The translations under genes and the position numbers were made by a program. Shown here in pieces: positions 21,288 through 42,595 of a stretch of 64,000 nt of DNA; positions within the stretch are counted from its first letter, which is position 1; every line of letters starts with the position of its first letter. The stretch lies in contig CAIKAH010000002.1 in assembly GCA_903825355.1 (NCBI GenBank), positions 15,359 to 79,358 on the forward strand. The letters run 5' to 3'. The notes beneath the pieces were generated by a model. That model saw only the letters and a list, made by a program, of their open reading frames with translations, searched no databases and was not told where the DNA came from. The stretch comes from an uncultured bacterium (GTDB lineage: Bacteria > Babelota > Babeliae > Babelales > RVW-14).

Positions 21288-21420
21288 GAAAATTGGTTTA
21301 AAAAAATGATGGTTGTAAAGTAGTTGTTGAATGTGTCACAGTTCATAGCAAAGGTACAAAGGTTTTGGCAATACCTTGGTAAGATTAGCATACTTAGAGC
21401 CGTTATGGGAGTTAGATGTT

Positions 21421-22638
21421 ATGCCGCTGTATCAGTACGAATCATTAAATCGCCGAGGCGTTCGCGTTAAGGGTACGATAGACGCATCAACAATGCAAGT
21501 TGCAAAAGAGACGTTGCAGGGGCAAGGGCTTATGCCAATTTCATTGACTGAAGTTGGTGCAGAAGGGGGTGGCGGCTTTACCTTAGCACGCTTGTTTGAA
21601 AAGCCTATTGAGGCAAAAACGGTTATTCTTTTTACTAAACAGTTGGCTGTGCTCCTAAAATCTGGGGTGCCCCTCTTGCAGGCCATTGAGCTGCTTACCG
21701 AACAATTTGATGGCCGCTTTAGGCGCATGCTTATTGCTATTAAAGATGGCTTAAAGTCTGGTGAATCATTTGCCAAAGAGCTTGCGCGTTACCAAAAAGT
21801 ATTTCCTAATGTGTATATTCAGCTGGTTAAGGCTGGTGAAGCAAGTGGTAAGCTTGATTATATTTTGCTGCGATTAACTGATTATCTAGCGGGAACTGAA
21901 GAGACGAAAAAACAGATTAAAAAAGCCGTTCGCTACCCGATTGCCATGATGGGGGTTGCTCTAGCAGTTATTGTTGGCATGCTTACCAAGATGGTGCCAA
22001 GTATGCGCGGTATTTTTGATCAAGGTGGTAAGGCATTGCCGGGGCCAACGCAGTTCTTGGTCGATTGTTCTGATTTTATGTTAAATCACTATGTGGTACT
22101 TTCTGGAATCTTTTTTCTTTTAGCAGTTAGCTTTGTCTATTGGCGCTCAACGCCGCAGGGTAAGTATCAGCTTGATAGTTTATTTTTACGCTTTCCGCCG
22201 ACTGCCTATTTTTCACGCACCAAAGTGGTGGTACAGTTTAGCAAAACGCTTGGTATGCTGCTTGAGAGTGGCGTTAACTTGCCAGAGGCGCTTGATATTG
22301 TTTGTAATATTGTGGATAACAAAGTACTGACTGGCAAGCTGCGTGAAGCGCAAGACAAAATTATAAAAGAGGGTAAAATAGCTCGTTACTTAAAAGAGAC
22401 GGCCATTTTTCCTAACATTGCTAGCTACATGATTAGCACGGGTGAGCAGTCGGGGCAGCTAGCACAAATGCTTACTACCGTGGGCAATGATTATGATGTA
22501 GAACTGAAAGAATATACTGAGGCGCTCACGGGTGCGATTACCCCTGTGATGACCTTTATCTTAGTCGGTATTATCGGTTTTACCATGATGGCAATTATGT
22601 TGCCTATTATGAGTATGGGTGATTTAGCAGGATTATAG
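21421..22638 (+). CDS. gspF: Type II secretion / type IV pilus inner membrane platform protein (GspF/PilC)
   Basis: MPLYQY...G start, FTKQLAVLLKSGVPLLQA, GEASGKLD, GEQSGQL. Confidence 0.95.
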   Translation: MPLYQYESLNRRGVRVKGTIDASTMQVAKETLQGQGLMPISLTEVGAEGGGGFTLARLFEKPIEAKTVILFTKQLAVLLKSGVPLLQAIELLTEQFDGRFRRMLIAIKDGLKSGESFAKELARYQKVFPNVYIQLVKAGEASGKLDYILLRLTDYLAGTEETKKQIKKAVRYPIAMMGVALAVIVGMLTKMVPSMRGIFDQGGKALPGPTQFLVDCSDFMLNHYVVLSGIFFLLAVSFVYWRSTPQGKYQLDSLFLRFPPTAYFSRTKVVVQFSKTLGMLLESGVNLPEALDIVCNIVDNKVLTGKLREAQDKIIKEGKIARYLKETAIFPNIASYMISTGEQSGQLAQMLTTVGNDYDVELKEYTEALTGAITPVMTFILVGIIGFTMMAIMLPIMSMGDLAGL

Positions 22639-22662
22639 TTCATTTATTCAGAAGGGAATTAC

Positions 22663-23103
22663 ATGGAATTACGTGGTAAACAGGCATTTTCACTTATTGA
22701 AATGCTGCTTGTTGTTGGCTTGATTGTGCTGATCTTCAGCTTTATAGGTCCAAAGTTAGTGAAGATGTTTAGCAGGAGTGATAAAGCTGAAATTCAATTC
22801 AAAATGAGTAGTATCCAGTCAGCTTTGAATGACTATCGTATGGATTTTGGTACCTATCCATCCACGCGTGAAGGGTTGCAAGCACTGGTAGAAAATCCTC
22901 GTCCAAATGATGAAAAATATCAACGTGTGTACAGCAAAGGCGCGTATTTGAAAGAAAACGATATTGTAGATAAAGCAGGTAACGAAATTATTTACAACTG
23001 TCCGCCTGAAATAAACAAGGGTAAGTTTCATGCGTATGAGCTTGTTTACCTTGGCAAGACACAGTCTGAAGATGATCCAGATCGCTTAGATGTTGGTGCT
23101 TAG
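22663..23103 (+). CDS. gspG: Major pseudopilin GspG
   Basis: A|FSLIEMLLVV prepilin motif; ALNDYRMDFGTYPST..GLQALV T2SSG signature. Confidence 0.9.
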   Translation: MELRGKQAFSLIEMLLVVGLIVLIFSFIGPKLVKMFSRSDKAEIQFKMSSIQSALNDYRMDFGTYPSTREGLQALVENPRPNDEKYQRVYSKGAYLKENDIVDKAGNEIIYNCPPEINKGKFHAYELVYLGKTQSEDDPDRLDVGA

Positions 23104-23115
23104 TTAATAAAATCC

Positions 23116-23234
23116 CCGCTCTTCCTCCGCCTTGCAGGCTTCGTCCTTCGATCCAGCCGTCGCTCTTACGAGCTATGGCGGACAGGCAGGCTCCCTGGGC
23201 GCCGAAGCCTTGGCGTAGGAGGCAGGAGGAGCGG
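23116..23234. repeat. Composite palindromic element with CCGCTC/GAGCGG termini but a different interior
   Basis: CCGCTCTTCCT...GCCGTCGCTCTTACGAGCTATGGCGG...CGCCGAAGCCTTGGCG...AGGAGGAGCGG. Confidence 0.6.
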
Positions 23235-23263
23235 ACTTTGCTGGTTTTGTTAGTGTAATTTTT

Positions 23264-23920
23264 TTGGGTGTTATGAATCAAAAAATAGATGCGATTTGTT
23301 TCCCCTTCGCTCATCCTGAGCTTGTCGAAAAACAGAACGGTAGTTCTGAACGACGCCCCGTTAGGGGTGGAAGAGCGAAGCAAGCATTTACCTTAGTAGA
23401 AATGCTAGCCGTGATTTTTCTTGCTTCGTTGCTGTTGAGCATGATTTTGCCACTGCTTAATCGCCGGCAAAAGCCAGAAGAGTCATGGGAAACACTCCAT
23501 GAACAGCTAAACCAAATTGCTTCCTTTGCACGGCAAGAAGCGCTTATAAAGCGCAAGGTTTATCGCCTTGTATTTGAGCAGGTGCCAAACCGTGAAGGCA
23601 AAGTGTTTGTTGAGCAAGAGCAGCCCGATCCTGAGCACGCAGAGAAGAAAATGTATATTGCTACTAAGTCAGATTACCAGCTTACTTCTTTAACCCTGAC
23701 GCATGGCAGAACCATACGTGCTGTGTATGTTGGTCGGCAAAATGTGCTTGGGGACCAGGAAAAGCAAGCATACTGTTATGTCATACCCGATGGCATGATG
23801 CAACCAGTGGTGCTGCAGATTGCAAAAAAAGATAAATTTGGTGAAGAAGTTGTATCGTTTCAGTTAAACCCCTTTTTGGGAAGTTTTAATCGCCATGAAG
23901 GTAAGTTTAAACCTGAATAG
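23264..23920 (+). CDS. Minor pseudopilin (GspH-like) with palindromic element in its leader
   Basis: A|FTLVEMLAVI prepilin motif; position in operon after gspG. Confidence 0.8.
   Translation: MGVMNQKIDAICFPFAHPELVEKQNGSSERRPVRGGRAKQAFTLVEMLAVIFLASLLLSMILPLLNRRQKPEESWETLHEQLNQIASFARQEALIKRKVYRLVFEQVPNREGKVFVEQEQPDPEHAEKKMYIATKSDYQLTSLTLTHGRTIRAVYVGRQNVLGDQEKQAYCYVIPDGMMQPVVLQIAKKDKFGEEVVSFQLNPFLGSFNRHEGKFKPE
23305..23380 (-). repeat. Structured palindromic element, long variant, intragenic
   Basis: CTTCGCTC...CTGAGCTTGTCGAA...CAGAAC-ggta-GTTCTG...CCCC-gtta-GGGG...GAGCGAAG. Confidence 0.9.
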
Positions 23921-24320
23921 TCCGCATAGCGCGTTTACGCTTGTTGAAGTATTAATGATACTTGGTTTATTAACCCTTTGTATGGGCACTATTGCGCGCA
24001 TGCAAGTGCGCTCGCTTAATCGTCTTGAGCAGGATAAAGATGCTCTGCAAAAAATATACCTCGTGCGGCGTACTATGCTTGATGCGCTCAAAATACCAAA
24101 TGCCGACCGCCTGCGATTAGTAAAAAAAGAGTACCAAGATGGCGAGATAAAAGTAAAAACAACGCTGCATGATTTGAGTAAAAAATCAAAAATCAGTAGC
24201 TTTAGTAAAAACATGCGTATGCTTAGCACCCAAGCCTCTTGGCAATTACGCCCTGGGGATAAGCAGCAAGCACAGCTGGTTTATTTTATGTACTTACCAG
24301 CGGAAGAGAAGAAAAAATGA
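23895..24320 (+). CDS. Minor pseudopilin (GspI-like)
   Basis: A|FTLVEVLMIL prepilin motif; operon order. Confidence 0.75.
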   Translation: MKVSLNLNSPHSAFTLVEVLMILGLLTLCMGTIARMQVRSLNRLEQDKDALQKIYLVRRTMLDALKIPNADRLRLVKKEYQDGEIKVKTTLHDLSKKSKISSFSKNMRMLSTQASWQLRPGDKQQAQLVYFMYLPAEEKKK

Positions 24321-25315
24321 TGAAGCGGGTTGCTGGTTTTACCCTGATCGAAATGCTCCTTGCAGCTGCGCTTGCAAGTATTTTGCTCTACGGTCTTATG
24401 CGCGCATTTTCTTCCGTTACCAAATACGTTGATATACTGCGCCAAACCGCTACGTTGCAGCGCACCATCGGGCTTACCTTTTACCAACTGCGTACAGACC
24501 TAAGCGCTGCCTTTGTGCCTGCCGTACTGCACCACGATGAAACTAAAGAAGAAAAAGAAAAACGAAAAAAAGAAGAAGATCAGCTTTCGCCCGAGAAAAA
24601 AGAAGCCGCTGCAAAAGAGCAGTTTAAGTCCTTTTTTTTACTTTCTATAGATGAACACAGTGATGCAGTAAAAGTAGAGGGTGCACGGCGGTATCGGTTT
24701 AAACAACTGAGCTTTGTTACCACTAACCCTTTGCATGTGTATGCGCAAAAGCAGCCCTGTTTAGTCCGTATTGCTTACGAGTTACAGCTTAATAAAAAAA
24801 GTTCAACCAGGGAGCGAGAAGTATTTTCACTCATACGCAAAGAAGCTGCAGATATTATGAATGGAGAGCTAAAAGAGGCGCAACAAGATAAAGACACTAC
24901 TAGGGTAAAAGTGCAGCAGTATGTGGTTGCTGATAATCTGCGTGGAGCATACATGGAATGTGAACTATTTAAGCGCGATATTCCCCGCAAAAAAGAGGAT
25001 GAAGATAAAGAGTTTCCTGAGGGGGAAACATTGCAAAGCACAACCTGGGGCACCAAAGAAAACCTGCAAGGCATTGTACCCCGTACGGTAACGTGCTGGC
25101 TTGATTGTTGGCAGGGTGATAGTGCTAACTCTGTTGTTGTTTGTGAAGTGATTGAAATTAAATCCTATCCAACACAGCATCCTAAACCAGAAGAAAACAA
25201 ACAATCTGCTGCGCAGGCTCCGGTAGATGCCAATCAAACTGCACAGCCCGTCCCCGATGGGCAACAACCAGGGCTACAAGTTCAACAGCAACTAGCGCCT
25301 GTGGTGGGCCCATGA
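24317..25315 (+). CDS. Minor pseudopilin (GspJ-like)
   Basis: G|FTLIEMLLAA prepilin motif; operon order. Confidence 0.8.
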   Translation: MMKRVAGFTLIEMLLAAALASILLYGLMRAFSSVTKYVDILRQTATLQRTIGLTFYQLRTDLSAAFVPAVLHHDETKEEKEKRKKEEDQLSPEKKEAAAKEQFKSFFLLSIDEHSDAVKVEGARRYRFKQLSFVTTNPLHVYAQKQPCLVRIAYELQLNKKSSTREREVFSLIRKEAADIMNGELKEAQQDKDTTRVKVQQYVVADNLRGAYMECELFKRDIPRKKEDEDKEFPEGETLQSTTWGTKENLQGIVPRTVTCWLDCWQGDSANSVVVCEVIEIKSYPTQHPKPEENKQSAAQAPVDANQTAQPVPDGQQPGLQVQQQLAPVVGP

Positions 25316-29386: not shown

Positions 29387-30943
29387 ATGAAAACATGCAA
29401 AGCAATCCTTGCTGTACTGTTATTTTTTGCTGCCTGTCGGGCAGAACTTGCAACGGGCCGGTCATTCTTTTTACCGCGTCCTGCGTGGTCTGATCATGCA
29501 CAAATGCTTGATCGTGGCTTAGTGGCTATCAAGAACAATGGGCGTTTCAGTTTTGGCTCAGTGGTTTCTTACCAATCATCAACGCATGGTGATCGTTTTG
29601 CGAAGTACTTTCTTCCTGGAGGTAAAAATAACTTAGTGGTGAAGGGGGCTAATGCGGCGGGGCCTTGTGATATTTCTGGTACGTGGCTACAAATTGTTGG
29701 GTTGAACCCGACCTTGGGAGCAGGCGGTCATGATCTTGCCCAATTGTTCAATGAATATAGCAGTGAAATTAGTATTAAGCCTCAGCTAGAGCGTACCGAT
29801 GCAACAGTGCAATTGCGCTATCATAATCGCCTTGGCAAGATGCCGTGGTCATTTGCTGTTGGCCTGCCAGTTTCGTACATGCAGACCAAGATGAATTTGG
29901 TTGAATCTAATGTGCAGAATAATTATACAATGCGGAATGCTAATCGTGCAGATGGGGTGCCCAATTTTACTGATACAGCATTAATAATTCCCGTACAAAA
30001 AGCTGTCTCATTATCAGCAATAGAATCTTTTAGTAACCAAAATAAGCATTTTGGGAAAATTAGTAATCAAGCACTGGATGCTAAGGGGATGGGGGATGTA
30101 AGCCTTGATTTACGCATGGGCATATGTGATGAACTGACTATTGGTGTACGAGGAGAATTGCCAACATCACCAAGGGGAACAGCAGAATATATGTTTGAAC
30201 CACTAATTGGTAATAATGGCCATGCAACGTTTGCTGCATATGTTTTGGCTGGTAAGCAAATGATAGAATACAAAAAAATAGCAATTGGGCTGCATGTGAA
30301 TGCACAATGGCAGATGCAGTTTGCTGGTAGAGAGTTGAGAACATTTGATTTGTTAGAGGCTGGTTCATGGAGTAGGTACTTATTGCTTGATGATACTGTT
30401 AACAATGCAGGATATGCAGAGCCTGGTGTTAATTTTTTAACGCGAATAGCACGTATTAACATTGTAAATAAGGCAACTGGGGGGATGGTATTAGATTTGC
30501 GACATGAAAAGGGTTTTATAGTTTCAATTGGCTACCAGGCTTATGCACGTGAGCAAGAAAAACTTAGGTTGCAGTCACCCTTCCCCGCTAGTGTTTTTGT
30601 AATTCGTGCGGTAAGCCCCAATCCAGGTGATGCTATAACGGATATGGAAGTTGTTCTGCCTCAAGATATTCGACTTAAAAATCACTTACTTTATAATCAG
30701 GGCAATATATTTCTTGCGCCTAACCCAGCAATTAACCAAAGCATAAGTAATAATGATCTTGATTTAAGCTCAGGATGTATGCCGAGTTATTTTTCTCACC
30801 AATTAATGGCAAGCTTAGCCTACACAGGGATGATGCAAAAAAATCCTGTGCATTTTGAACTCGGTTCTCAATATGAAATTATTCGACAAAGCGCAGATAC
30901 AAATTTTTGGTCTTTATTTGCGGCCTTAACTATAAAAATGTGA
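29387..30943 (+). CDS. Hypothetical secreted protein, possibly an outer-membrane beta-barrel
   Basis: Signal peptide; many amphipathic beta-strand-like segments; terminal WSLFAALTIKM. Confidence 0.6.
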   Translation: MKTCKAILAVLLFFAACRAELATGRSFFLPRPAWSDHAQMLDRGLVAIKNNGRFSFGSVVSYQSSTHGDRFAKYFLPGGKNNLVVKGANAAGPCDISGTWLQIVGLNPTLGAGGHDLAQLFNEYSSEISIKPQLERTDATVQLRYHNRLGKMPWSFAVGLPVSYMQTKMNLVESNVQNNYTMRNANRADGVPNFTDTALIIPVQKAVSLSAIESFSNQNKHFGKISNQALDAKGMGDVSLDLRMGICDELTIGVRGELPTSPRGTAEYMFEPLIGNNGHATFAAYVLAGKQMIEYKKIAIGLHVNAQWQMQFAGRELRTFDLLEAGSWSRYLLLDDTVNNAGYAEPGVNFLTRIARINIVNKATGGMVLDLRHEKGFIVSIGYQAYAREQEKLRLQSPFPASVFVIRAVSPNPGDAITDMEVVLPQDIRLKNHLLYNQGNIFLAPNPAINQSISNNDLDLSSGCMPSYFSHQLMASLAYTGMMQKNPVHFELGSQYEIIRQSADTNFWSLFAALTIKM

Positions 30944-30950
30944 GATAGCT

Positions 30951-33900
30951 ATGTTGATGAATATTGCATGTTTAATTTTTTCTATATTTCTAATGCCTCA
31001 TGCTATGTACGGAGCAGGTAGTTACAGGCAGTACGATGTCCTTGCATTTGAGAATGCCATTAAATCGGCAAATCTTACTACATTAGACCAACTACTGAGT
31101 GCGGTTAATACATCAAGCATGGTAGAAAGTTCTCTAAAGCCAGCTTTACGCACAAAAATTGCTCAACAAAAAGATGCACTTAAGGCTGCAGCAGCGAAAG
31201 CCTCTTCAACTGCCACAGCCGCAGCGACCCGTGGTGCAGATACCGAAAAAAGTGCCAAGGAGCTAAAAGCTAAAATTGAAAAGTCAAAAATGGCTCTTTC
31301 TGGAAAAAGTACCAGCGCAGATGCTATGCGGACAAAAGCATATGATCAGGCTATTAGCGACCTTGAAGGTATTGCAACTCAAGCAGCTAGTACAACGGAT
31401 GAGACTACTTTTCAAAAGCTCCAGGAAGGTATTTTAGCAGCGCAAAGGGCGGTGGCTGAAGCTGAAAAAGATGCTGAAAAGCAAGAAAAGGAAGAAGAAG
31501 CGGCCACTCAAAATGCTGCTGCGGTTCAGGCATTTCTTAATCAGAAAAAAGTTGGGGTTGATGCAGAAGAACGGGAAGTAGCGCAAACATTTACAGCAGC
31601 AAAAGATCAGTTCGATACAGTTAAAGAGCGGTTTGAGAAAGAGGTTGAAAAATCAAAAGCAAAAAAAGCTCAAGAAGAGGCTGTTAAAAAGCAAGCAGAG
31701 GCAGCAGCAGCTGCTAAAAAAGCAGCAGCAGAAGCGAAAGCCGAAGAGGCCCGTCGCGTAGCAGCAGAAGCTCTCGCAGCAGCACAGAAAATAGCTGCAG
31801 AAAAAGCAGCGCAAGAGGCGGTTGCTGCCAAGCAAAAGGAAGCGCAAGCTAAAGAGGAAGCTGCTCGTTATAACGACCAGCTTGGAAAACAAGCTGAAGC
31901 AATGGGTAAGCTACAAGAAGAATGGTTGAAAGCAGGGGAGGATGGAGCAGTAGAAAAAGTGCTAGCCGATGCTTTGGTAGGTGCTGTTGTAGAAAAGGCT
32001 TATGAGGGCGGAGCCTTGGATGAAGCTCGAGCTGTGCAAGTAAAGTTAGCTGATCTTGAGCGAGAAGGATTTATGGTTGCAGATGAAGCAGTTCAAGTCG
32101 AATTAAAGCGACAGTTTGTTGCAAACTTAATCGATGCTGATTCAGTCTCTCTCAATGATTTGGCTACTTTTATTTTAGGATCAGCAGATGAGCAGGACCG
32201 AGCATTAGTGCAAAAAGCTCAAGCCTTAGCGCGTCTAGCAGCCGGGGGTAAGCCTGATAGCACAGAGCTGGTGCCTGATGAAAAAGAGGTTAGGAAAAAC
32301 GTTTTGGATATTTTGCCAGAGGCATATAAGCTAAAAAAGAAGCGTGAGATACTCAAGGCACGGTTTGAAGACCAAGATCTATCAGAACAAGAGATCAATA
32401 AAGTAAAGCTTCGTTTGGCTCTCAAAGCACAAGCTATGACTAATGAAGTTGCTAGAGGAGGTGTGTATGAGGAGCTTGCTAGCCGTATTAGAGGCTTTGA
32501 AGGTGTTGATAAAAAGAAACAAGATCTACTAATTATCAAAACGCTTTTAGGCGGTGATGATCGAGTAGCTGCAGCGTTAAAAGAGGCAAAGGCCGCTTTG
32601 CTTACTGATAAACAAAAACAAGTCTTCGAAGATTCTGAATTATTAAAATTAAAAAATGCGATAGATAAAAAATACAGTGATCTGAAAAAAAAGATAGAAG
32701 ACCAACACGCTGCAGAAGAGGCAAAAAAAGCACTTTATGAGCAACATAAGCTCTTGACGGAAGAATTAAATCAGCTGGTTGCTGCTTATCCAGAGCAAAC
32801 AAAAAAATTAGACGCAGTTTTTAAGGAGCGTACTGAGTACATAATGCCAGCAGATGAGCTTGAGGCTCTACTGAAAGCGTATGTGGAGGGGATGTGGAAG
32901 CTTAATGCAGGAAGTACTGCTACAGCACCTGAGCTATCAAATAAAGATTTACTCGCTATTGAGATGAGCTCGGAGTACAAAAGTCTAAACAACAAAGACA
33001 CTGGTCTTTTATCGCAGTGGAAGGCTCAGGCAGGAACGGGAGAAGAGGGCATTATTCAGGCTAGGGCAGCAGCAAAACAAGCTTTGCAATCAGCTGGAGA
33101 AGCGGAAAAAAAGGCTTATCAACTCGCTTTACTAAAATTGGAGCAGCACATTGAACAGTTGGAGTTTGCAGCAGAGCATGCAGAGGGTGCATCGCATACA
33201 AAGAAACGAACATTTGATTCAAATCAAATGTTCGTTGAAAAACAGGATTTATTTGACCAAAGATTATATGTTGCTGCATTGTTGAGGCTGTGGTTAGAAC
33301 AACAGGGAAGGAACAATGCAAATTTTTTACCATGGGTAGAAAAATTGGATGCAGGGGATCTTTCTTTAGACCAGTTAGAAGATCCATATGGTGCTAAGAT
33401 CAAAAATGTTTGTAGCGGCGAGGCAGCGTCGGTTGCTAGCGAGGTCGATACAGCTCTATTCTTTATTAGAAAATTGATTGCTACAACGCATGATATTTTG
33501 CGTTTATATGGCACTGGTGGGGCAGAATCAGTTGAAGAATTTCTTATGCATTATCAGGGTACTTATGGGGCTTTACGCCAAAATGATGAGGAAAAATATA
33601 GCAAACTTCTAGTCGATTTAAAAAGAGGGATTCAGCAAAAAATTGATCTAGTTAACGCGCATCAAGCAAGTCTAGCAGGCTCTGCCGTAGCAGGTAGGGA
33701 TCTGAAAGAAGAGAATGCAAGAAAAAATAAACTTGCAAAAATGGCAGAACAGTTGGCTGCCTATAAAAAAGGAATTGACGATATTAATGCCCATTTAGCA
33801 GGGATTAGCAAGAACATACCAAGTACTCATCTTGTAGCTCAGCAAGAAGAATATAGAGGCTTGTTGCTGAACTATTTGCAGGCGTCTCAAGAAGTATTTT

Positions 33901-36900
33901 TGCTAGCATATGAATGTGGCAAGCGTAATGAAATGCTTAAATTAAAGGCGGCTATTGGGTTAAAGGAAAAAGAATTAGCGAAAGTAACGAGTGCGTTGCC
34001 TGAAGAGGGAGAAGCCGTAGAAGAAGCTAATGAACCGAGTGCTGAGGTCTTGGAGCAAAAAGCAAAAGCAGCGGCCCTAGCAGCGGCTAATCAGCAGCAA
34101 GCTCAGCTCTGGCAGAATGAATTAGTAGATACTATTGAGAGCATGCGCATGGAAGGCGCTGTAAAAGCAGCGATTCAACAAGCTTCTGGCAACCAGATGA
34201 AGCAAATCTCTAACGTGACCTCAGCATTCAATTTTACTCTGGGTGATTTTGACGCCTTTCTACAGGTGGTGACTAATGCTCAGCTCAGTGACGGCAGAAT
34301 GTCGAGATTTAAAGACTGCGATGATGAGTTGTTTGCATTAAATATTGATAGGAATGAGCGCGATAGTGCTTATATGAATTCGTTCCCATTACTGCGAGAT
34401 GCGGAGAATATATTAACGGTGCCCTATGTAGACCGCCATGGCCTTCCCTTGGCTGTGATGGTTAAAAAATCGCTTACCTCTGTCTTAGGATACAAACAAA
34501 GTCAACTGCAAGAAAGTACCATCACTCTGCTATCTCAATTTGCATACACCATTTTCTTGCCAACCATAAAAAAATTGTATGATACAGTGTATTTAGAAAA
34601 AGCGAGTGGGAGTCCTATTCGAGCTTCATTGGTAACGATTGCACGTTTTATTAAAGATGTAGTTTCGATTGATCGAGTTAGAAAATATGTACCAATAGAC
34701 TACCTTAATTATTTGCGTGATATGGCATTCCACCCATGGATTTGTTGCTCAGCAGCAATGATTGAGGGTGCGAGTTTAGATTCTGCTGGCATTATCCCCT
34801 ATTTAAGTAACTTTGAGCAAGAACAAGACGTAACTAATGCAGCAAAAAAAATTGAAGCTAAATTTGAAAAAATGCTTGCAGCGCTAGAAGGACAAGCAGC
34901 GAAATTTAGGGTAGATACAAAATTGCAATCATTGCCTGGAAGCTATTGCAAGATGTTAGCGGCACATCTTGCACCCGTATTTACTCTAAAAGTACAGGGG
35001 GCGGCAGATCTATTAGAACAATTTAAGCAAAAAATGCACGATGTATTTGATAAGGTTAATAAAGCAAACAATTATACAAATGCTCAAGCCGAATATACAC
35101 AAGGTTTAAAAGATTTGCATAAATTCTACAATAACTTGACGCCTGCAGACGCAAAGCGTGCGTTTGTTATTGGCCGTAATAGGCAGAGATATTCATACCA
35201 TCAAATTATAGATGCGCTCGAAGGAGCATGGGAATTGCTGAATTCTTCTATGCATCTGAGTGAAAAACAACAAATTTTTAGCCAAAATGAGGTCCTTTCT
35301 AATTTAGGCTTTAATTTATTTGATGACAGAGCAGAAGAGTTTATAAGAAGTAATATTTCTGATGATGGTCGCTATAGAACATATGAGCTCTTTGATGTAG
35401 CAGTAAGAGAATTTTTTGCTCATTTATTAGAAAAATTTTCCTGGAATCGTAGTGCCCTATCAGAAAAGAAAAAGCAAGCCGAGTTTGAAAGAGAAAATAA
35501 AGAAAAAGCGGCAACATTTATTGCACTGAAGCTGCATGAATATTGTCAAGCCGCTGAAAGCTCTATTGTTGATTTGCTTAATATCCTGGCCGCTAAAAAA
35601 GTAGATATGAGTGAAGAGGCTGGAATCACGGCAGACGAAGAAAAAGCATTTTGGGATAAGTTATGCTATGACATCTTAACTCAAATCGTTTTAGCCGCCT
35701 TTCCTCCTGTTGGTAAAGCTCCACAAAAAGAAGAGCCTGTTGTTGCATCGCTTTTTGATCCCTTGCGCAAAATTGGCACTATTGCAGAAAATAATTTTAA
35801 TCCTGCTTTGAATGCACTGTATCCGCAGCTTGAAGGGGCTTGGAAAGAAGCGAGCAGCCTTGCGAATATAGAAGCGACCAATAAATTATTAATGCATCTT
35901 GCCGTTGCGCAACATCCGCTATATGGATTCGAGAATTTTGTTGATGAATTTAAGCCTCTGGGCGGTGCTACAGATGCAGTCGTTGTGCAGAGTTATAAAT
36001 GGAAAAATGCACCTGATGATTTTTCTCAAGTTGAATGGGCCCCGAAGACAGAAAACGCGGGTCTGAAATTATCTGATCTTGCGAGAAATTGGGCCAATAG
36101 TCCGTGGAACACTACTGCATCTTTTAAAGCATTGTTTGCTCAACAGTCTACTACAACAGGGAAAAATGGACCTAATAGTGTAAAAGATTTTTTGGTTGAA
36201 ATGGGACAGATGGTAGCATTCTTTCCTCATGAGCTAGCGGTTCTTATGGCGGGTGGTTCGGTCGATGAGCTGCATCAACAGTCACTTTTTGTAGATAATA
36301 AGTTGAATATTGAACTGATGCGAAAATATGCTGATGTCCGAGAGCGTTTGCTAAATGCAGTAGATCAATTTATTGATCAAGTACTGTTTAAGAGTGGGCA
36401 GCTGCTCCAGAAGCGTCTGGGGTTTACAATGGACAATGCCACTGCGAGCCTTCTTTGCCAAAAAGGAAGCGGTGATGTTTTATATAAATGTTTTGCTGCT
36501 AATGATCTTAATCAACCGTTGATCGGAGCTTTAGGTAATATTTTGTATTGTAAAGATGAAGAGGCGTGGAAAACACCATTTGCAGCTGATCGTAAAAATT
36601 TGGGTATGTTGTTGTTGTACTTTATCTTAAATATTCATATTGATAAATATGAATACAAGCAGCCATTGGATAATGAGATTAAAAATGTAATTAAAGAAAT
36701 CATAGATTTAGAGCATTTTCCTGCTAAAGCAACAGAAACAGAAAAGGACATTAAGGAGCTAGACAAGGACTTGTATGCATCCCAGAATCGCCCATTTATT
36801 TTGTTTAGTTTCACAAAGTACTTTTTAGCAAGTTGTATTGATGATAGATTAATTGAGCGGTCAGTAAACCCTGATAATGTAGTAACTATTTCGGATGAGC

Positions 36901-39900
36901 AACGGGCTATTCCCGCCAATGGTAAGTATGTTTTGCTTCGTAAAAATGTTTTTGGTTCCGGCAATGATAAAAAGGGTCGTGTTACCTATGACGCACTTGC
37001 TGGCTGTTCTGACGAGCAAAAAGCACTATTTGATACAGATCAAAATCTGAATAAATACAAGCCCTTATTTGAAATTTGTAGTAAGCAAGAATATGCCTAC
37101 GATGCTCTTATTATGGCGACAGATGATCAAAAAAAAGCGGCAATAAAAGCATTGATTCCTGAACTTGAAAAATGTTTGCCAGAGCTCAGAAAAGAGCTTC
37201 AACAGATATTAGTGCAAAAAATAAATGCTAAGAAGGAGGCTGTGCGCATCGGTGCTCCGGGAGCAAAGCCGCTTGTAAAGTTGCTTGACCAGGAGACTGG
37301 ATTGCAAAACGTACTTGCTAAGTATACGGAAGTACTTACGGCTCTTAGTAATGCAGTACAAGAAGAAACTAGAGCCGAGTTTGCAAAAGAAATTCGTGCT
37401 AAAAATAAGAATTTTGTTGAGCTTATAACTAATAATACAAAAAAATTAGGTGACGCATTTCTGTTTAATCTGAGAGAATTTACAGAAGCAAATAACTTTA
37501 AAGTCTTTTTTGGTAATCTGACAGAAAATAATCAAGCATTTATGGAGATAAGAAAAATCGCTGAGTGGTTGCGTCCTCACGTGGCAGGTCTAGTTTTTGA
37601 CCAAAAATCAATATATCAATCTACATTAGCACTATACCGTCGAGTTAGTAGCGCTGATAAAACTCCCCCAACCCCGCTTGCAAGCCTTTCTCATGACCGA
37701 AAAACTGTTGAGTATCCGCCGTTTATGCAGCACCTAGAGGCTTCTAAACAAAGCTTTTCGATAGAGCATGGTGTTGGTAGACGTGCGCGTACAACCGTTA
37801 TTACTGATCACGCAATACTTGAAATAATGAGTGAAAAAATAACCAAGCCATTGCTGTATTTAATGCGCTATCACCTACTACCATGGTCTGCCCATTACAA
37901 CTCACCGTGTATGACGGAAGAACAGGTTGCTCAGATTTGCCGTGTTGACCGTGCAGCATATGAACATTTTCTTTCAAGGAAAGCAGCGTCTGGAAAAGAT
38001 GATAGTGAAGCGTCTGCCGAGGATGCACTAGCTTCTTCCGCAAGAGGCTCTAGTCGCAGAGGAGGCAATACGAGTGCTCAAAAAGGTGCAGACGCTTTTC
38101 AAGCAGCTTTAATGAATCTGGTTGATAAAAAGGCCACTAGTGCACTTCATAAAAATCCTGAAAAAGCAGGAGCAACCGGTGGGGCTTTAGCTCTGCCTGG
38201 TGCTACTGGTAGCGAAAGGCTCATCGTGCTCCAGAAACCTAATGGTGCTGCCGTTGCTACTCGCGTAGCAGTTGCACCTTCTACGAAAGTAACCATTGAT
38301 AAAGGCAAGGGCAGCAATCTTGAGGTTGCAGTACCTGCATTTGCATCTGTTGAATTAAGAAAGGCAGCCGAGAAAGACCAGCAGGCTGTAGCTGCGGTGC
38401 AAAAATCAGAGCTTGAAAAAATATTCGCTGCTAGAAAAAAAGAAGCAGAAGATAGTCTAGCAGTTGCAGTGCAGGGTGGTACTGAAGAAGAGGAACCGCA
38501 AGCGGCAGCGCATGGAGCAGCAATGATTACCGGTAAGCTAGCGGGTGAGATACGCAGAGCGCGTAGCTCTGCAGAAAAAGCTAAGTTATTGCAGGAGGCT
38601 TCATACGGAGAGATTGAGCCTATTTATGCTTATGAATTGATTAAAGATGCTCTAGAAATGCCTGGTGTGGAGCATGCTTCTGTTGAATCGTTATTGTCTG
38701 TGCTGGCAGTGAAGGGGGTGCCAATTTCGACGGTCTTAAGCCATACACATGAAGACATGCATGGGCGTACAGCATTAGCTAGAATTGCCATGAAGAGTGC
38801 GTATGTTCTACCTGAGGTTGTTGCCTGTTTAGTGGGATGGGGCTTGAACGTAAATACTGCCATTATATCAGAGGGTACTGAGCCTAATTTTGGTGAACTA
38901 GTTGCCACATCATCAGTGAGTGATTTGTACGATTACAATAAGGTATATGCATTGTTTAATTGCGATGCTAATGATTTTATACGAGGCAGTCTAACTCAAG
39001 ACGCATTGCAAACCTGGGGTGCCAATTTGCTTAAGAATGCACAGAAGGTGTTTGTCGATTGTCTAGAGATGTTAAGTGCTTATGATAAAGATCCTGAGAA
39101 ACACCCTTCGATGAACAGTGGGGCCCTCGAGGCATTGCTGGTGCGCATGCAAGAATTCGTAGTGAAAGCGCAACTAGTTGAATGGTTGAATAAGAAAGCG
39201 CCAATAGGAGACAAAAACATTAGCCCTGCTTCGGTTATTGAGAGCTTGTCAGCCGAAAGGTTTGACATGTTTAAACAGCAGGTAAAAGCATTTATTGCAG
39301 CAGGCGAAGAAGAGCCATTTGTATCGCAGTTTGTGGATAACGCGCATGTTAGCGACGATGAAGTGAGTGCTGCCTTGGCGGTGCTTGGGGTTGGGCAAGA
39401 TGCTGATTGGGATGCAATACGGGCTAGATATAGAGCGTTAGCTCTAAGCGAGCATCCAGATAAAGTATCTGGGAGTGAGGCAGCTAAAGCAGCAGCTACG
39501 GAGGAGTTTCAGAAAATAGCAGCAGCGTATGAAGTGTTGAAGCTGAAACATAACCCAAGAGAGGTTGCTCCTAGTGATGAGGTGGATGAAGATGAAGATG
39601 GCGCCGATGTAGAAAGAAAGCGAGCAGAGTCTCCTACCAGGGGGGGCGATGGTCGTCCTGTGCAGACTTTTGTCGATTATTTTGATCCAGAAGCAGCAGC
39701 AACGCCAAAGGAAGCTTCACCTGGGCTGGCAAATACCTCTGGTAATGATTGTTTTATCAATACCATGTTGCAATGTGTGTTCTCAAGCCCTGAGCTGGTT
39801 AATTACATTCATAGCGTGGTGAATGATTCAGAGATAAAGGAACGAGTTGATGAACGCAAAAGAAACTTAATTCATGCTAATCGCGATTTTACTGAGGCAG

Positions 39901-40787
39901 AACCAAGAGTGCATAAAGAGCATCTGAGGATGCTAGTTGATTTTGAGCGGCTACTGCCATCATTCAAGGCAGTGTTTAACCAGTATTTCTGTTCTAATTA
40001 TGTTAGCCGCGATGCTTTGAGAGAATTTCACCGAACCATCAGATCTTTCTCCACTGATCGTGACACACAAGGTACGGGCCAAGGTGACCCGGCTGAAATG
40101 TTTGATATATTATTTGCTCGATTGGGAAGTATCAAAGAATATCCTGATCCTGTAGTAGTTCGTGGTGAATCTAGAGCAACCTGTAACAATGATAGATGTA
40201 GTCTCAGAAATCTGGAAATGATCGGAAGGCCAGAAGATCAGCCCCAGCCTTCGGTGCATTTATCCATCGAGGACGGAACAACAGCAGTACCTGTCTCTCA
40301 ATTGATTGAAAATTATGAACAAGAAGAAAAAGCACTTGATTATTATTGCCAAGAAAAAACTTGCCGTCCTAATGAAGAAAAAAGATTCGCTGGCTTTATT
40401 AGCCAGACGCAATCCAAGAAACTAACGATTATTTCAGAATGTTCTGTGATGCCTTTTTACATAAAGCGAACGCATTACGAGGCTCCTAAAATTGAGACCC
40501 CAATTGTGCTTGAAGGTGAAATTATAATTAATCATCAACGCTATCGACTTGCTGCTATTGGTGACCATGGAGGGGGCGCCAATGGAGGACACTGGCAAGC
40601 ACGTAAAAAGAACTTGCTGCAATGGGATATAGCCTCTGATAGGTTCGTACTACACAAAGAACAATGGGAAAATTGCAGTGATGCCGTTGTTCAGAATATT
40701 CATTCACCGCAGGGAAGCAACAGCTCAAGTGCAACATTGCTGATGTACGAGTTGGTACCTGGTACCGATAGAAGGGATCGCAAATAG
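30951..40787 (+). CDS. Giant 3278-aa secreted protein: coiled-coil N-terminus, J-domain, C-terminal USP (peptidase C19) deubiquitinase domain
   Basis: Signal peptide; A/E/K-rich coiled coil; HPDK J-domain at about 39372-39545; Cys box GLANTSGNDCFINTMLQC, QGDPAEMF, His box HGGGANGGHW. Confidence 0.9.
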   Translation: MLMNIACLIFSIFLMPHAMYGAGSYRQYDVLAFENAIKSANLTTLDQLLSAVNTSSMVESSLKPALRTKIAQQKDALKAAAAKASSTATAAATRGADTEKSAKELKAKIEKSKMALSGKSTSADAMRTKAYDQAISDLEGIATQAASTTDETTFQKLQEGILAAQRAVAEAEKDAEKQEKEEEAATQNAAAVQAFLNQKKVGVDAEEREVAQTFTAAKDQFDTVKERFEKEVEKSKAKKAQEEAVKKQAEAAAAAKKAAAEAKAEEARRVAAEALAAAQKIAAEKAAQEAVAAKQKEAQAKEEAARYNDQLGKQAEAMGKLQEEWLKAGEDGAVEKVLADALVGAVVEKAYEGGALDEARAVQVKLADLEREGFMVADEAVQVELKRQFVANLIDADSVSLNDLATFILGSADEQDRALVQKAQALARLAAGGKPDSTELVPDEKEVRKNVLDILPEAYKLKKKREILKARFEDQDLSEQEINKVKLRLALKAQAMTNEVARGGVYEELASRIRGFEGVDKKKQDLLIIKTLLGGDDRVAAALKEAKAALLTDKQKQVFEDSELLKLKNAIDKKYSDLKKKIEDQHAAEEAKKALYEQHKLLTEELNQLVAAYPEQTKKLDAVFKERTEYIMPADELEALLKAYVEGMWKLNAGSTATAPELSNKDLLAIEMSSEYKSLNNKDTGLLSQWKAQAGTGEEGIIQARAAAKQALQSAGEAEKKAYQLALLKLEQHIEQLEFAAEHAEGASHTKKRTFDSNQMFVEKQDLFDQRLYVAALLRLWLEQQGRNNANFLPWVEKLDAGDLSLDQLEDPYGAKIKNVCSGEAASVASEVDTALFFIRKLIATTHDILRLYGTGGAESVEEFLMHYQGTYGALRQNDEEKYSKLLVDLKRGIQQKIDLVNAHQASLAGSAVAGRDLKEENARKNKLAKMAEQLAAYKKGIDDINAHLAGISKNIPSTHLVAQQEEYRGLLLNYLQASQEVFLLAYECGKRNEMLKLKAAIGLKEKELAKVTSALPEEGEAVEEANEPSAEVLEQKAKAAALAAANQQQAQLWQNELVDTIESMRMEGAVKAAIQQASGNQMKQISNVTSAFNFTLGDFDAFLQVVTNAQLSDGRMSRFKDCDDELFALNIDRNERDSAYMNSFPLLRDAENILTVPYVDRHGLPLAVMVKKSLTSVLGYKQSQLQESTITLLSQFAYTIFLPTIKKLYDTVYLEKASGSPIRASLVTIARFIKDVVSIDRVRKYVPIDYLNYLRDMAFHPWICCSAAMIEGASLDSAGIIPYLSNFEQEQDVTNAAKKIEAKFEKMLAALEGQAAKFRVDTKLQSLPGSYCKMLAAHLAPVFTLKVQGAADLLEQFKQKMHDVFDKVNKANNYTNAQAEYTQGLKDLHKFYNNLTPADAKRAFVIGRNRQRYSYHQIIDALEGAWELLNSSMHLSEKQQIFSQNEVLSNLGFNLFDDRAEEFIRSNISDDGRYRTYELFDVAVREFFAHLLEKFSWNRSALSEKKKQAEFERENKEKAATFIALKLHEYCQAAESSIVDLLNILAAKKVDMSEEAGITADEEKAFWDKLCYDILTQIVLAAFPPVGKAPQKEEPVVASLFDPLRKIGTIAENNFNPALNALYPQLEGAWKEASSLANIEATNKLLMHLAVAQHPLYGFENFVDEFKPLGGATDAVVVQSYKWKNAPDDFSQVEWAPKTENAGLKLSDLARNWANSPWNTTASFKALFAQQSTTTGKNGPNSVKDFLVEMGQMVAFFPHELAVLMAGGSVDELHQQSLFVDNKLNIELMRKYADVRERLLNAVDQFIDQVLFKSGQLLQKRLGFTMDNATASLLCQKGSGDVLYKCFAANDLNQPLIGALGNILYCKDEEAWKTPFAADRKNLGMLLLYFILNIHIDKYEYKQPLDNEIKNVIKEIIDLEHFPAKATETEKDIKELDKDLYASQNRPFILFSFTKYFLASCIDDRLIERSVNPDNVVTISDEQRAIPANGKYVLLRKNVFGSGNDKKGRVTYDALAGCSDEQKALFDTDQNLNKYKPLFEICSKQEYAYDALIMATDDQKKAAIKALIPELEKCLPELRKELQQILVQKINAKKEAVRIGAPGAKPLVKLLDQETGLQNVLAKYTEVLTALSNAVQEETRAEFAKEIRAKNKNFVELITNNTKKLGDAFLFNLREFTEANNFKVFFGNLTENNQAFMEIRKIAEWLRPHVAGLVFDQKSIYQSTLALYRRVSSADKTPPTPLASLSHDRKTVEYPPFMQHLEASKQSFSIEHGVGRRARTTVITDHAILEIMSEKITKPLLYLMRYHLLPWSAHYNSPCMTEEQVAQICRVDRAAYEHFLSRKAASGKDDSEASAEDALASSARGSSRRGGNTSAQKGADAFQAALMNLVDKKATSALHKNPEKAGATGGALALPGATGSERLIVLQKPNGAAVATRVAVAPSTKVTIDKGKGSNLEVAVPAFASVELRKAAEKDQQAVAAVQKSELEKIFAARKKEAEDSLAVAVQGGTEEEEPQAAAHGAAMITGKLAGEIRRARSSAEKAKLLQEASYGEIEPIYAYELIKDALEMPGVEHASVESLLSVLAVKGVPISTVLSHTHEDMHGRTALARIAMKSAYVLPEVVACLVGWGLNVNTAIISEGTEPNFGELVATSSVSDLYDYNKVYALFNCDANDFIRGSLTQDALQTWGANLLKNAQKVFVDCLEMLSAYDKDPEKHPSMNSGALEALLVRMQEFVVKAQLVEWLNKKAPIGDKNISPASVIESLSAERFDMFKQQVKAFIAAGEEEPFVSQFVDNAHVSDDEVSAALAVLGVGQDADWDAIRARYRALALSEHPDKVSGSEAAKAAATEEFQKIAAAYEVLKLKHNPREVAPSDEVDEDEDGADVERKRAESPTRGGDGRPVQTFVDYFDPEAAATPKEASPGLANTSGNDCFINTMLQCVFSSPELVNYIHSVVNDSEIKERVDERKRNLIHANRDFTEAEPRVHKEHLRMLVDFERLLPSFKAVFNQYFCSNYVSRDALREFHRTIRSFSTDRDTQGTGQGDPAEMFDILFARLGSIKEYPDPVVVRGESRATCNNDRCSLRNLEMIGRPEDQPQPSVHLSIEDGTTAVPVSQLIENYEQEEKALDYYCQEKTCRPNEEKRFAGFISQTQSKKLTIISECSVMPFYIKRTHYEAPKIETPIVLEGEIIINHQRYRLAAIGDHGGGANGGHWQARKKNLLQWDIASDRFVLHKEQWENCSDAVVQNIHSPQGSNSSSATLLMYELVPGTDRRDRK

Positions 40788-40990: not shown

Positions 40991-42595
40991 ATGCAAAAAA
41001 TTTGTTTAGATCTGAAAGAGTTCAAAACAATCCGCCAGCAAGGAGGGTTGTACGTTGACAAGACAAAGTATATCTATGAAATTTTTGGTAACGGCTCGTA
41101 TTTTTTTCTTGCTCGTCCCCGTCGTTTTGGTAAATCATTGCTCTGTGCCACGTTAGCAGAATTGTTTGCAGGTAACCGCCATCTTTTTAAAGGCTTGTGG
41201 ATTGATGGCAGTGATTGGGCGTGGAAAAAGCATCCGGTTATTCGCTTGGATATGAGCAAGGCGGCTTCGCCTGTAGCAACACCAGAAGAAGTTCGCGGCT
41301 ATATGGTAGATTTGCTCAACAGCAGCGCAAAGCATCTTGGACTACCTGCAAACACCCTCAGGCAGGGTACACCAATGGCAATGCTGAGTGATTTAATTGC
41401 GCAGGCTAAAGAAGCTTTTGGTGAGCAGGTGGTGGTTATCATCGATGAATACGATAAACCACTGCTTGATGTGATTCAAGATCGCTCTCGCTATACGGCA
41501 ATTCAAGAGGAGTTGAGCGCTTTTTATAGTCAGCTCAAGCCGGCCGAAGAAGATATCAGGTGTGTGTTGATTACGGGCGTATTTAAGTTTACTAAAACCT
41601 CAATATTTTCTGGCCTTAATAATTTGAATGATATCACCTTTAAGCCGAGGGCTGCAGCATTATTGGGGTACACAGAGCAAGAGATTAGAGCGGTTTTTGC
41701 AGACCATCTAGCTGCGGTGGCTGCTGCGTATAAAAAAACGGTCGACGAAATGATGCTTGTCCTTCGTGACAGGTATAACGGGTATTTTTTTGGCGTGAAT
41801 TTGGCAAGTAATGAACTTTCTGCTGGGGTGTATAATCCATATGCTATGAATTATGTTTTTGCAGAGCAGCAGCAGCTAGACCGGTGGTTTAGTTCAGGCT
41901 CGCCGTCAGCCTTAATTAAAAAATTAACCAGCGAACAATTTGAAGCGCTAGAGCCAGCGCGTTTGACAATGTCTTTTTCAGCATTAGAAACATCATGCAG
42001 CCCAGATGATATGACTGCATTGAGTATGTTGTACTATGCTGGGTATCTGACGCTTAAGCACTGCTTTAATAAAAAAGTGACGCTTGGCTTTCCTAATGCA
42101 GAGGTGGCAGGTGCATTTTCAGATGCCTTACTGCCTGCGTTACTGCAAAAAAGTGTTTTTTTTGTTGCGGGGCTTATTGATGAAATACACGACCTGTTTT
42201 GCCAAGAGCGCTTAGATGATTTGAAACAGCTCCTCAATGACGCCCTGGCGCCTGTAGCTTATCCAGTACTAGCACAGCCAGCTGCAAGCGCAGAGCTGCT
42301 GCCAGAGCGCGTGTACCAAATAGCATTTTATTACTTATTTATTGCGAGCAAAATGCCTACAACGTTAGAGGATATGACTAATCGTGGCCGCATTGATATT
42401 GTCGTAGAAGGGCCTCGGTCATTTTATATTTTTGAGCTTAAAATCAATGAGCCAGCGTCAGTAGCGATTGCCCAAATTAAAGAAAAAGAGTACACGGCAA
42501 AGTTTCGGCACAAGGGTAAACAGCTTTATGCCGTTGGCATCTCGATAGACACAGCAAAGCGCTCAGTGGCAGAGCTGATGTGGGAACGTTTTTAG
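40991..42595 (+). CDS. AAA-ATPase-like domain plus PD-(D/E)XK nuclease (PDDEXK_9) protein
   Basis: YVDKT, RPRRFGKSL, IIDEYDKP, NGY.F, YNP; C-terminal GRIDIVV...IFELK. Confidence 0.9.
   Translation: MQKICLDLKEFKTIRQQGGLYVDKTKYIYEIFGNGSYFFLARPRRFGKSLLCATLAELFAGNRHLFKGLWIDGSDWAWKKHPVIRLDMSKAASPVATPEEVRGYMVDLLNSSAKHLGLPANTLRQGTPMAMLSDLIAQAKEAFGEQVVVIIDEYDKPLLDVIQDRSRYTAIQEELSAFYSQLKPAEEDIRCVLITGVFKFTKTSIFSGLNNLNDITFKPRAAALLGYTEQEIRAVFADHLAAVAAAYKKTVDEMMLVLRDRYNGYFFGVNLASNELSAGVYNPYAMNYVFAEQQQLDRWFSSGSPSALIKKLTSEQFEALEPARLTMSFSALETSCSPDDMTALSMLYYAGYLTLKHCFNKKVTLGFPNAEVAGAFSDALLPALLQKSVFFVAGLIDEIHDLFCQERLDDLKQLLNDALAPVAYPVLAQPAASAELLPERVYQIAFYYLFIASKMPTTLEDMTNRGRIDIVVEGPRSFYIFELKINEPASVAIAQIKEKEYTAKFRHKGKQLYAVGISIDTAKRSVAELMWERF

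Follow-up and report, generated by a model that had tools for sequence, protein, structure and literature searches.

Can one bacterial protein place a deubiquitinase next to the Hsp70 of its host? This question is raised by a gene in a 64,000-nucleotide stretch of DNA from an uncultured bacterium (assembly GCA_903825355.1, contig CAIKAH010000002.1, positions 15,359 to 79,358; hereafter the window). On the forward strand of the window lies an open reading frame (ORF) of 3278 amino acids (aa), the giant ORF, whose predicted product carries exactly two Pfam domains, DnaJ and UCH/USP (USP, ubiquitin-specific protease), each above its curated cut-off. A reading made from the DNA letters and their translations, here called the sequence-only reading, had described this product as a secreted giant protein with a J domain directly upstream of the USP, and had proposed that it couples recruitment of host Hsp70 to deubiquitination. 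Our analysis favours a related view, to which we give an even chance: that this is a single lineage-specific gene of the Dependentiae encoding a very large host-directed effector, in which a USP and a J domain that engages host Hsp70 are held together on a flexible tether. The coordinates of the features are collected in Table 1.

A J domain and a USP-type deubiquitinase domain share one polypeptide

A J domain with an intact HPD motif had been predicted at 39372-39545. It was confirmed in the same frame as the rest of the giant ORF, where it reads ALAVLGVGQDADWDAIRARYRALALSEHPDKVSGSEAAKAAATEEFQKIAAAYEVLKL. The PF00226 profile matched it with 46.2 bits against a cut-off of 27.8 (E 5e-12), the match ending at profile position 55 of 63, and phmmer against solved J domains gave weak, consistent matches (DNAJB2, 2lgw; E. 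coli DnaJ, 1bqz/5nro). When the domain was aligned with E. coli DnaJ, human DNAJB1 and the genome's own DnaJ, its HPD motif fell on the HPD of all three. The LGV turn of helix I is kept in this alignment, as are the Tyr (Tyr25 in E. coli numbering) and three Arg of helix II, IRARYRALAL, and the Phe (Phe47 in E. coli numbering) and AAYEVL of helix III, EEFQKIAAAYEVL. The AlphaFold2 (AF2) model contains three helices (model residues 243-253, 261-275 and 284-308), with the HPD loop straight after helix II. The module satisfies the defining sequence features of a J domain, helix IV excepted.

The acidic linker and the USP expected downstream of the J domain were also found. The linker is modelled as disordered, with a predicted local distance difference test (pLDDT) score below 50. 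PF00443 (MEROPS C19) matched the USP domain over profile positions 2-254 of 254 with 48.1 bits against a cut-off of 23.9 (E 1.5e-12). In a family alignment of 19 sequences, N2928 (the oxyanion Asn), C2934 (GNDCFINTMLQC), H3214 (GGHW) and D3244 (NCSDAVV) occupy invariant columns, and the aromatic gatekeeper after the catalytic His is a Trp (His3214-Trp3215). The family profile, built from an alignment of USP relatives only (A2), matched the solved structures of USP15, USP2, USP8, USP21 and USP4 with E values of 1e-59 to 1e-52. The same alignment was used for folding; a mixed J and USP MAFFT alignment (A1), in which J and USP sequences shared columns, was dropped. The AF2 model of the USP domain shows the USP fold of thumb, palm and fingers at a pLDDT mostly above 90, and its best Foldseek matches were USP2, USP8, USP46 and USP30 (E about 1e-14, template-modelling (TM) score on the target 0.6-0.7); the fold match to giant-virus USPs was equally good. 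The predicted catalytic triad is intact, with no sign in sequence or model of an inactive enzyme.

Table 1. Features of the giant ORF and its neighbourhood, in positions of the window.
Feature	Position	Strand	Basis or remark
Giant ORF, 3278 aa, single uninterrupted frame	30951..40787	+	0 N, 0 internal stops
Signal-peptide-like segment MLMNIACLIFSIFLMPHAMYGAGS	30951..31022	+	hydropathy
Ala/Glu/Lys/Gln-rich region, about aa 101-1000	31251..33950	+	composition; 0 Pfam/PDB sequence matches
Orphan middle region, about aa 1001-2810	33951..39380	+	globular composition at about aa 1100-2300
J domain, aa 2811-2865, helices I-III	39381..39545	+	PF00226, 46.2 bits
HPD motif, aa 2835-2837 (H2835-P2836-D2837)	39453..39461	+	alignment
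Acidic linker, aa 2866-2924 (59 residues)	39546..39722	+	DEVDEDEDGADVE; modelled as disordered, pLDDT <50
TRGGDGRP, aa 2896, inside the linker	39636-39659	+	BLASTP start of P0003 homology
USP-type deubiquitinase domain, aa 2925-3266	39723..40748	+	PF00443, 48.1 bits
Predicted catalytic Cys2934	39750-39752	+	catalytic triad position
Predicted catalytic His3214	40590-40592	+	catalytic triad position
Predicted catalytic Asp3244	40680-40682	+	catalytic triad position
Outer membrane protein gene, 518 aa, signal peptide, predicted beta-barrel	29387..30943	+	ends 7 nt before the giant ORF
Type II secretion system protein F and two or three pseudopilin genes	21376-26430	+	5-9 kb upstream of the giant ORF; export context, 21376..25315
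AAA-ATPase_like and PDDEXK_9 gene	40991..42595	+	follows the giant ORF; member of a recurring cassette

The architecture is without precedent in the searches made

The sequence-only reading knew of no characterised protein with this architecture, and all protein and Dependentiae-genome searches made bore it out. The 495-aa J-USP piece was compared by phmmer with 1.84 billion representative proteins and gave 392 matches. A protein with both domains should rank first in such a search; the best matches were USP-only or J-only, and none of the top matches was a J and USP protein. At E<=0.001, word-based searches of 5.8 billion proteins had no matches for the 495-aa C-terminal piece alone or for aa 2700-3278 within the full protein. 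Among the PF00443 and PF00226 matches listed for the 90 USP-bearing Dependentiae genomes, cross-matching of coordinates revealed no other ORF shared by a J domain and a USP. No record matched the giant protein exactly, and a genome-contig scan with the J-USP piece found no relative. The main text of a large survey of J-domain proteins makes no mention of UCH or ubiquitin (PMC10410713). The combination is new as far as searched, and each of its modules belongs to a known kind of effector.

The giant ORF is an uninterrupted frame with an orphan body

A fusion seen once, in a metagenome-assembled genome (MAG) of 57 contigs, could be an artefact, either a chimeric assembly or a sequencing error that joined an orphan gene, a J gene and a USP gene; in another genome described below (G064) the J and USP genes are indeed separate. 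We consider this highly improbable. No segment of the giant ORF recurs elsewhere in the genome, and the sole self-match is a 32-nt palindrome at 33205-33236. No rival frame of at least 100 aa is open on the plus strand over the giant ORF, and the GC content of third codon positions stays between 0.27 and 0.43 throughout. The nearest relative, P0003, also has its USP inside a long ORF, which crosses the TRGGDGRP linker. These indirect checks of the assembly (repeats, frame and comparison with P0003) revealed nothing suspicious. The palindrome itself forms a perfect stem of 14 pairs inside the giant ORF.

Upstream of the J domain, about 2700 aa had been described as helical or coiled-coil. This holds for the N-terminal ~1000 aa, which are rich in Ala, Glu, Lys and Gln, but not for aa ~1100-2300, where the composition is that of an ordinary globular protein. 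Between about aa 101 and 1000, 46-80% of the residues in every 100-aa window are A, E, K, Q, L or R and aromatic residues are scarce, so that this region is probably coiled-coil. An ankyrin-like unit proposed at about 38750-38855 (about aa 2601-2635) was dropped: there were no Pfam ankyrin matches even at E<=10, and the model has a pLDDT below 50 there.

The remainder of the body is an orphan. The middle region has no Pfam match at E<=0.01 and no PDB sequence match, and no homologues of it were found in 40 related genomes, three of them of the same genus. The N-terminal 2800 aa as a whole show no Pfam, PDB-sequence or within-genome homology and no internal repeats, and they are unlike the other proteins that adjoin paralogues of the upstream outer membrane protein (OMP) gene. 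A scan for promoters and terminators gave hits at chance level only.

The genome encodes further USP and J-domain proteins with export-like leaders

The genome comprises 1.39 Mb in 57 contigs and is about 95% complete. The housekeeping DnaJ shares 82%, 65% and 64% identity with its counterparts in 'candidate division TM6 bacterium UASB124', Babeliales and TM6 MAGs, respectively, and 50-57% with those of other Dependentiae, which places the source in the Dependentiae/Babeliales. Dependentiae are a phylum of obligate intracellular parasites of protists. Of 261 Dependentiae genomes, 90 contain PF00443, often more than once; the 14 control genomes have none. In Chromulinavorax, a cultured relative, signal peptides are found on 44% of proteins, and Sec has been proposed as the route for effectors (PMC6561590).

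The giant protein begins with a hydrophobic leader (h-region IACLIFSIFLM), which is the sole 19-aa stretch among its 3278 aa with a mean Kyte-Doolittle hydropathy above 1.6. The leader resembles the uncharged leader of a USP paralogue on contig C1. Two more USP proteins of this genome have a signal-like start. One of them, at C8:15623-17392, combines a signal-like leader with two RanBP2/NZF-type zinc fingers followed by a coiled coil; the first finger has the CTF motif that is typical of ubiquitin-binding NZF fingers.

J domains are similarly numerous: one DnaK stands against seven J-domain ORFs, a single one of which is a true DnaJ. The six others are the giant ORF and five ORFs whose J domain, of three helices, lies at the extreme C-terminus; four of these five have a hydrophobic leader, and the N-terminus of the remaining one is lost to a contig end. 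All five non-housekeeping J proteins with a complete N-terminus start with a hydrophobic leader. Two tandem paralogues of 716 and 489 aa on the minus strand of C48 (16608-20236) have signal-like leaders, a common N-terminal domain and a C-terminal J domain; both contain Trp/Tyr-rich repeats, and the longer one has RanBP2-like fingers.

Two USP relatives from the same genus end in CaaX boxes, CVIC in G003 and CTIS in P0010. Their sequences suggest prenylation by the host, and since a CaaX box can be used only in eukaryotic cytosol, this USP clade would be expected to reach the host. Both proteins (G003 C51 1180-2874, minus strand, ending in GGWCVIC; P0010, ending in RWCTIS) have a signal-like leader and a Pro/Ala/Thr-rich spacer before the CaaX box. 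In a related genus, a 3751-aa ORF (G019:C17:15571-23664) has at least four USP domains and a neighbouring 1884-aa ORF carries another. With an intracellular phylum, signal-like paralogues and CaaX boxes on relatives, a host-directed function of the giant protein is well supported by context.

The USP module occurs in different bodies

The nearest relative, P0003, is a 5'-truncated protein of 1164 aa encoded on a 4265 bp contig of JGI metagenome 3300020578. By BLASTP it is 34% identical to the giant protein over the stretch that starts at TRGGDGRP and closes with the USP. Before this motif it has a coiled coil and IQ-like motifs and no J domain, and after the USP it continues for 550 aa. IQ-like motifs flank its USP on both sides, and a WH2-like stretch was noted by eye. 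The gene that follows P0003 is of the AAA-ATPase_like/PDDEXK_9 kind and shares 90% identity with the one that follows the giant ORF. This comparison suggests that the locus is a fast-evolving effector slot beside a conserved, possibly mobile gene. Given the homology boundary in P0003 and the 90%-identical downstream gene, the USP module would be a cassette that recombines into different bodies at a fast-changing locus.

A gene pair in G064, a genome of the same order and another family, offers a second case for comparison. There, the gene of a 346-aa J protein overlaps that of a 314-aa USP protein by 8 nt, the J gene coming before the USP gene, and both products have a signal-like start. The J domain is 39% identical to that of the giant protein and shares its three-helix form and long helix II-III loop, while the USP is weakly similar. 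After these two genes comes a homologue of the OMP gene that precedes the giant ORF (25% identity, E 3e-20). The fusion looks like recent domain shuffling, probably of two effector modules that are separate elsewhere in the phylum.

A model of host-directed deubiquitination and the points against it

In the mechanism that we favour, the giant protein would exit the cytoplasm via Sec and cross the outer membrane via the barrel encoded upstream, the nearby type II machinery or vesicles, and so meet the host cytosol or a host-facing surface. Its USP would strip ubiquitin from targets on the host side. The J domain would dock on ATP-bound host Hsp70/Hsc70 and set off hydrolysis, and Hsp70 would thereby be clamped on its client within reach of the tethered USP. 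The likeliest net result would be deubiquitination of Hsp70-bound clients, of Hsp70 itself, or of bacterial surface or effector proteins under triage, which might then evade proteasomal or autophagic disposal. Recruitment of host Hsp70 by the J domain, and a functional link between this and deubiquitination, are inferences.

Several points weigh against this mechanism. Helix IV, with its QKRxxYD motif, is missing from the J domain, the sequence going on as KLKHNPREVAPSDE; the loop between helices II and III exceeds the usual length by 4 residues; and the pLDDT of the domain in the AF2 model is just 55-68, a value explained by the folding alignment, which held USP relatives only and left the J region to be folded in effect from a single sequence. 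The protein had been called secreted, and its N-terminus is indeed signal-peptide-like, but the n-region of the leader, MLMN, contains neither Lys nor Arg; by sequence, G-A-G|S is a possible cleavage site. A protein of 360 kDa would also have to cross the outer membrane and any host membrane. The giant gene has no orthologue among the 40 related genomes, even in its own genus, so that purifying selection on the fusion cannot be demonstrated. The J-USP arrangement of G064 is a single case that is not kept at the five loci compared within its genus (four genomes), where USP genes are present with no J or OMP gene nearby, and by a rough estimate about one chance adjacency of J and USP genes is expected over 90 genomes. 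That both genes lie on one strand, in the order of the fusion and beside an OMP gene (about five copies per genome), makes chance less likely for G064, and we regard the pair as a suggestive second, independent association of J and USP and nothing more.

The missing helix, the overlong loop and the modest model confidence, together with the lack of an orthologue in which conservation could be seen, would also fit a J-like module that has degenerated into a helical spacer and no longer drives Hsp70; the protein would then be another USP effector with a long orphan body. We find this quite unlikely, since the HPD, the Tyr and three Arg of helix II, the Phe of helix III and AAYEVL are all retained and the Pfam score lies 18 bits over the cut-off. 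The three-helix form moreover recurs in five other proteins of the genome, the exported-type J proteins sharing the same helix IV truncation, and in G064.

The leader bears on another alternative, in which the J domain acts inside the bacterium. The cell's own DnaK could keep the pre-protein unfolded for post-translational Sec export, or the protein could be a membrane-anchored, cytoplasm-facing co-chaperone like DjlA. DjlA-type proteins have a membrane segment at the N-terminus and a cytoplasmic J domain at the C-terminus, DnaK is present in this genome, and the leader is without the usual basic n-region. Against this stand the lack of a known USP substrate in the bacterial cytoplasm, the CaaX boxes on USP relatives in the genus, the full DnaJ already encoded in the genome and the unusual number of accessory J domains that would result, six for one DnaK. 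An intrabacterial role thus has a slim chance in our estimation.

Relation to known systems

In the host-directed model, a viral parallel would be SV40 large T antigen, in which a pathogen J domain acts in cis with another module and aims host Hsc70 at chosen complexes; large T is viral and nuclear, and its partner module binds Rb-family proteins and is not a protease. In eukaryotes, the link between Hsp70 triage and ubiquitin removal runs via separate proteins, such as CHIP and ataxin-3.

The USP module compares with SnUSP1-3 of Simkania negevensis, which are active bacterial USP-type deubiquitinases (PMC10643670). Like the giant protein, these are large proteins with hydrophobic segments from an obligate intracellular bacterium, with a eukaryote-type USP and a Cys, a His and an aromatic gatekeeper. 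They differ in having no J domain, in belonging to Chlamydiae with type III secretion and in their size, a few hundred to about 1000 aa compared with 3278, and their activity is established by experiment whereas that of the giant protein is predicted.

For the J domain, a comparable effector is HopI1 of Pseudomonas syringae, whose J domain binds host Hsp70 (Jelenska 2007/2010, cited in PMC8982422). HopI1 is likewise a bacterial effector with an HPD-bearing C-terminal J domain that binds and redirects host Hsp70; it differs in lacking an enzymatic partner domain, in type III delivery and in acting at plant chloroplasts. The resemblance is functional and does not imply membership of one family.

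Two eukaryotic systems bring related modules together. USP19 acts with the J protein DNAJC5 and Hsc70 in misfolding-associated protein secretion (PMC5838229), so that a USP and a J protein jointly handle misfolded Hsp70 clients, but as two separate, unfused eukaryotic proteins that serve the host's own proteostasis. Fungal Ubp2-type USPs carry the RPT repeat PF13446 ('repeated domain in UCH-protein'), which is thought to serve formation of the Rsp5/Rup1 complex (PMC8078820), and so resemble the giant protein in adding small four-helix modules to a USP. The PF13446 profile picked up the N-terminal portion of a genuine J domain in one protein (P0021), suggesting that the repeat may be kin to J domains; the giant protein itself differs in having no PF13446 match at E<=1. 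Within its own phylum, the G064 pair is comparable in the J-then-USP order, the signal-like starts, the three-helix, long-loop J domain and the adjacent OMP homologue, and differs in consisting of two proteins, without a giant body and with a weakly similar USP.

Deubiquitinase effectors and J-domain effectors are each known, and one polypeptide that tethers both would be a natural experiment. If the coupling is real, Hsp70-bound, ubiquitin-marked clients would be a target of intracellular parasites, and the protein would offer a compact tool for Hsp70-directed deubiquitination. The little-studied Dependentiae are rich in USP and J-domain proteins that have predicted export signals, and the modules are quickly reshuffled.

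The giant ORF adjoins a predicted outer membrane barrel

The product of the OMP gene upstream of the giant ORF has no Pfam match at E<=0.1, Phenol_MetA_deg included, and, with a family profile, no PDB sequence match at E<=10. AF2 predicts a barrel whose strands have a pLDDT of about 80-88 and are more numerous than the 12 of FapF. The best Foldseek matches of this model (mean pLDDT 62) were FapF (5o67/5o65; E 2.6e-9, TM score on the target about 0.6) and COG4313 (4rl8). FapF is a Pseudomonas channel that exports unfolded amyloid subunits. The OMP family has five copies in the genome (29387-30943 in the window; C37:8187-9896; C1:1474-3087; C18:41478-43001; C36:272-1750), which tend to adjoin genes of large signal-peptide proteins and are often followed by AAA-ATPase_like/PDDEXK_9 genes. 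Contig C37 repeats the order OMP, signal-peptide protein, AAA-ATPase_like, and contig C18 the order OMP, AAA-ATPase_like. The copies may represent a recurring 'barrel plus cargo' cassette, and gene order and predicted fold hint that the OMP could be a dedicated export partner of the giant protein.

This neighbour brings in the main rival to the coupling of host Hsp70 to deubiquitination, namely that the J domain works in cis: host Hsp70 would refold or ratchet the effector once it has crossed the membranes in an unfolded state, for instance via the barrel, and the USP would act independently of Hsp70 clients. Such a role fits the data about as well as the coupling does; we hold it to be rather unlikely. 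The best fold matches of the upstream barrel are channels for unfolded polypeptides, a protein of this size would need help in folding, and other exported-type J proteins of the genome end in a J domain that is attached to unrelated bodies, as a generic accessory module would be. On the other hand, a J domain near the C-terminus emerges last and cannot ratchet N-to-C translocation, exported-type J proteins of 178-240 aa hardly need folding help, and the likeness to FapF lies at the level of the fold only, in a model with a mean pLDDT of 62.

A combination of the two roles is conceivable. In each 'barrel plus cargo' cassette, a FapF-like channel would thread an unfolded signal-peptide effector; here, the J domain would let host Hsp70 refold the cargo and then hold Hsp70 beside the USP, rescuing clients or parasite proteins from CHIP-type triage. 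We see this as a speculative and decidedly unlikely extension of the host-directed model; if true, it would be a new secretion logic together with a new subversion of host proteostasis.

The secretion genes seen near the giant ORF were the gene of type II secretion system protein F and the pseudopilin genes only; no genome-wide search for type III or IV systems was made. These genes are followed by genes for an MlaD-domain protein (26452-27990) and an AAA_14/DUF4143 ATPase (27990-29192). The window also encodes a 1726-aa ankyrin protein, further ankyrin proteins and a Fic protein.

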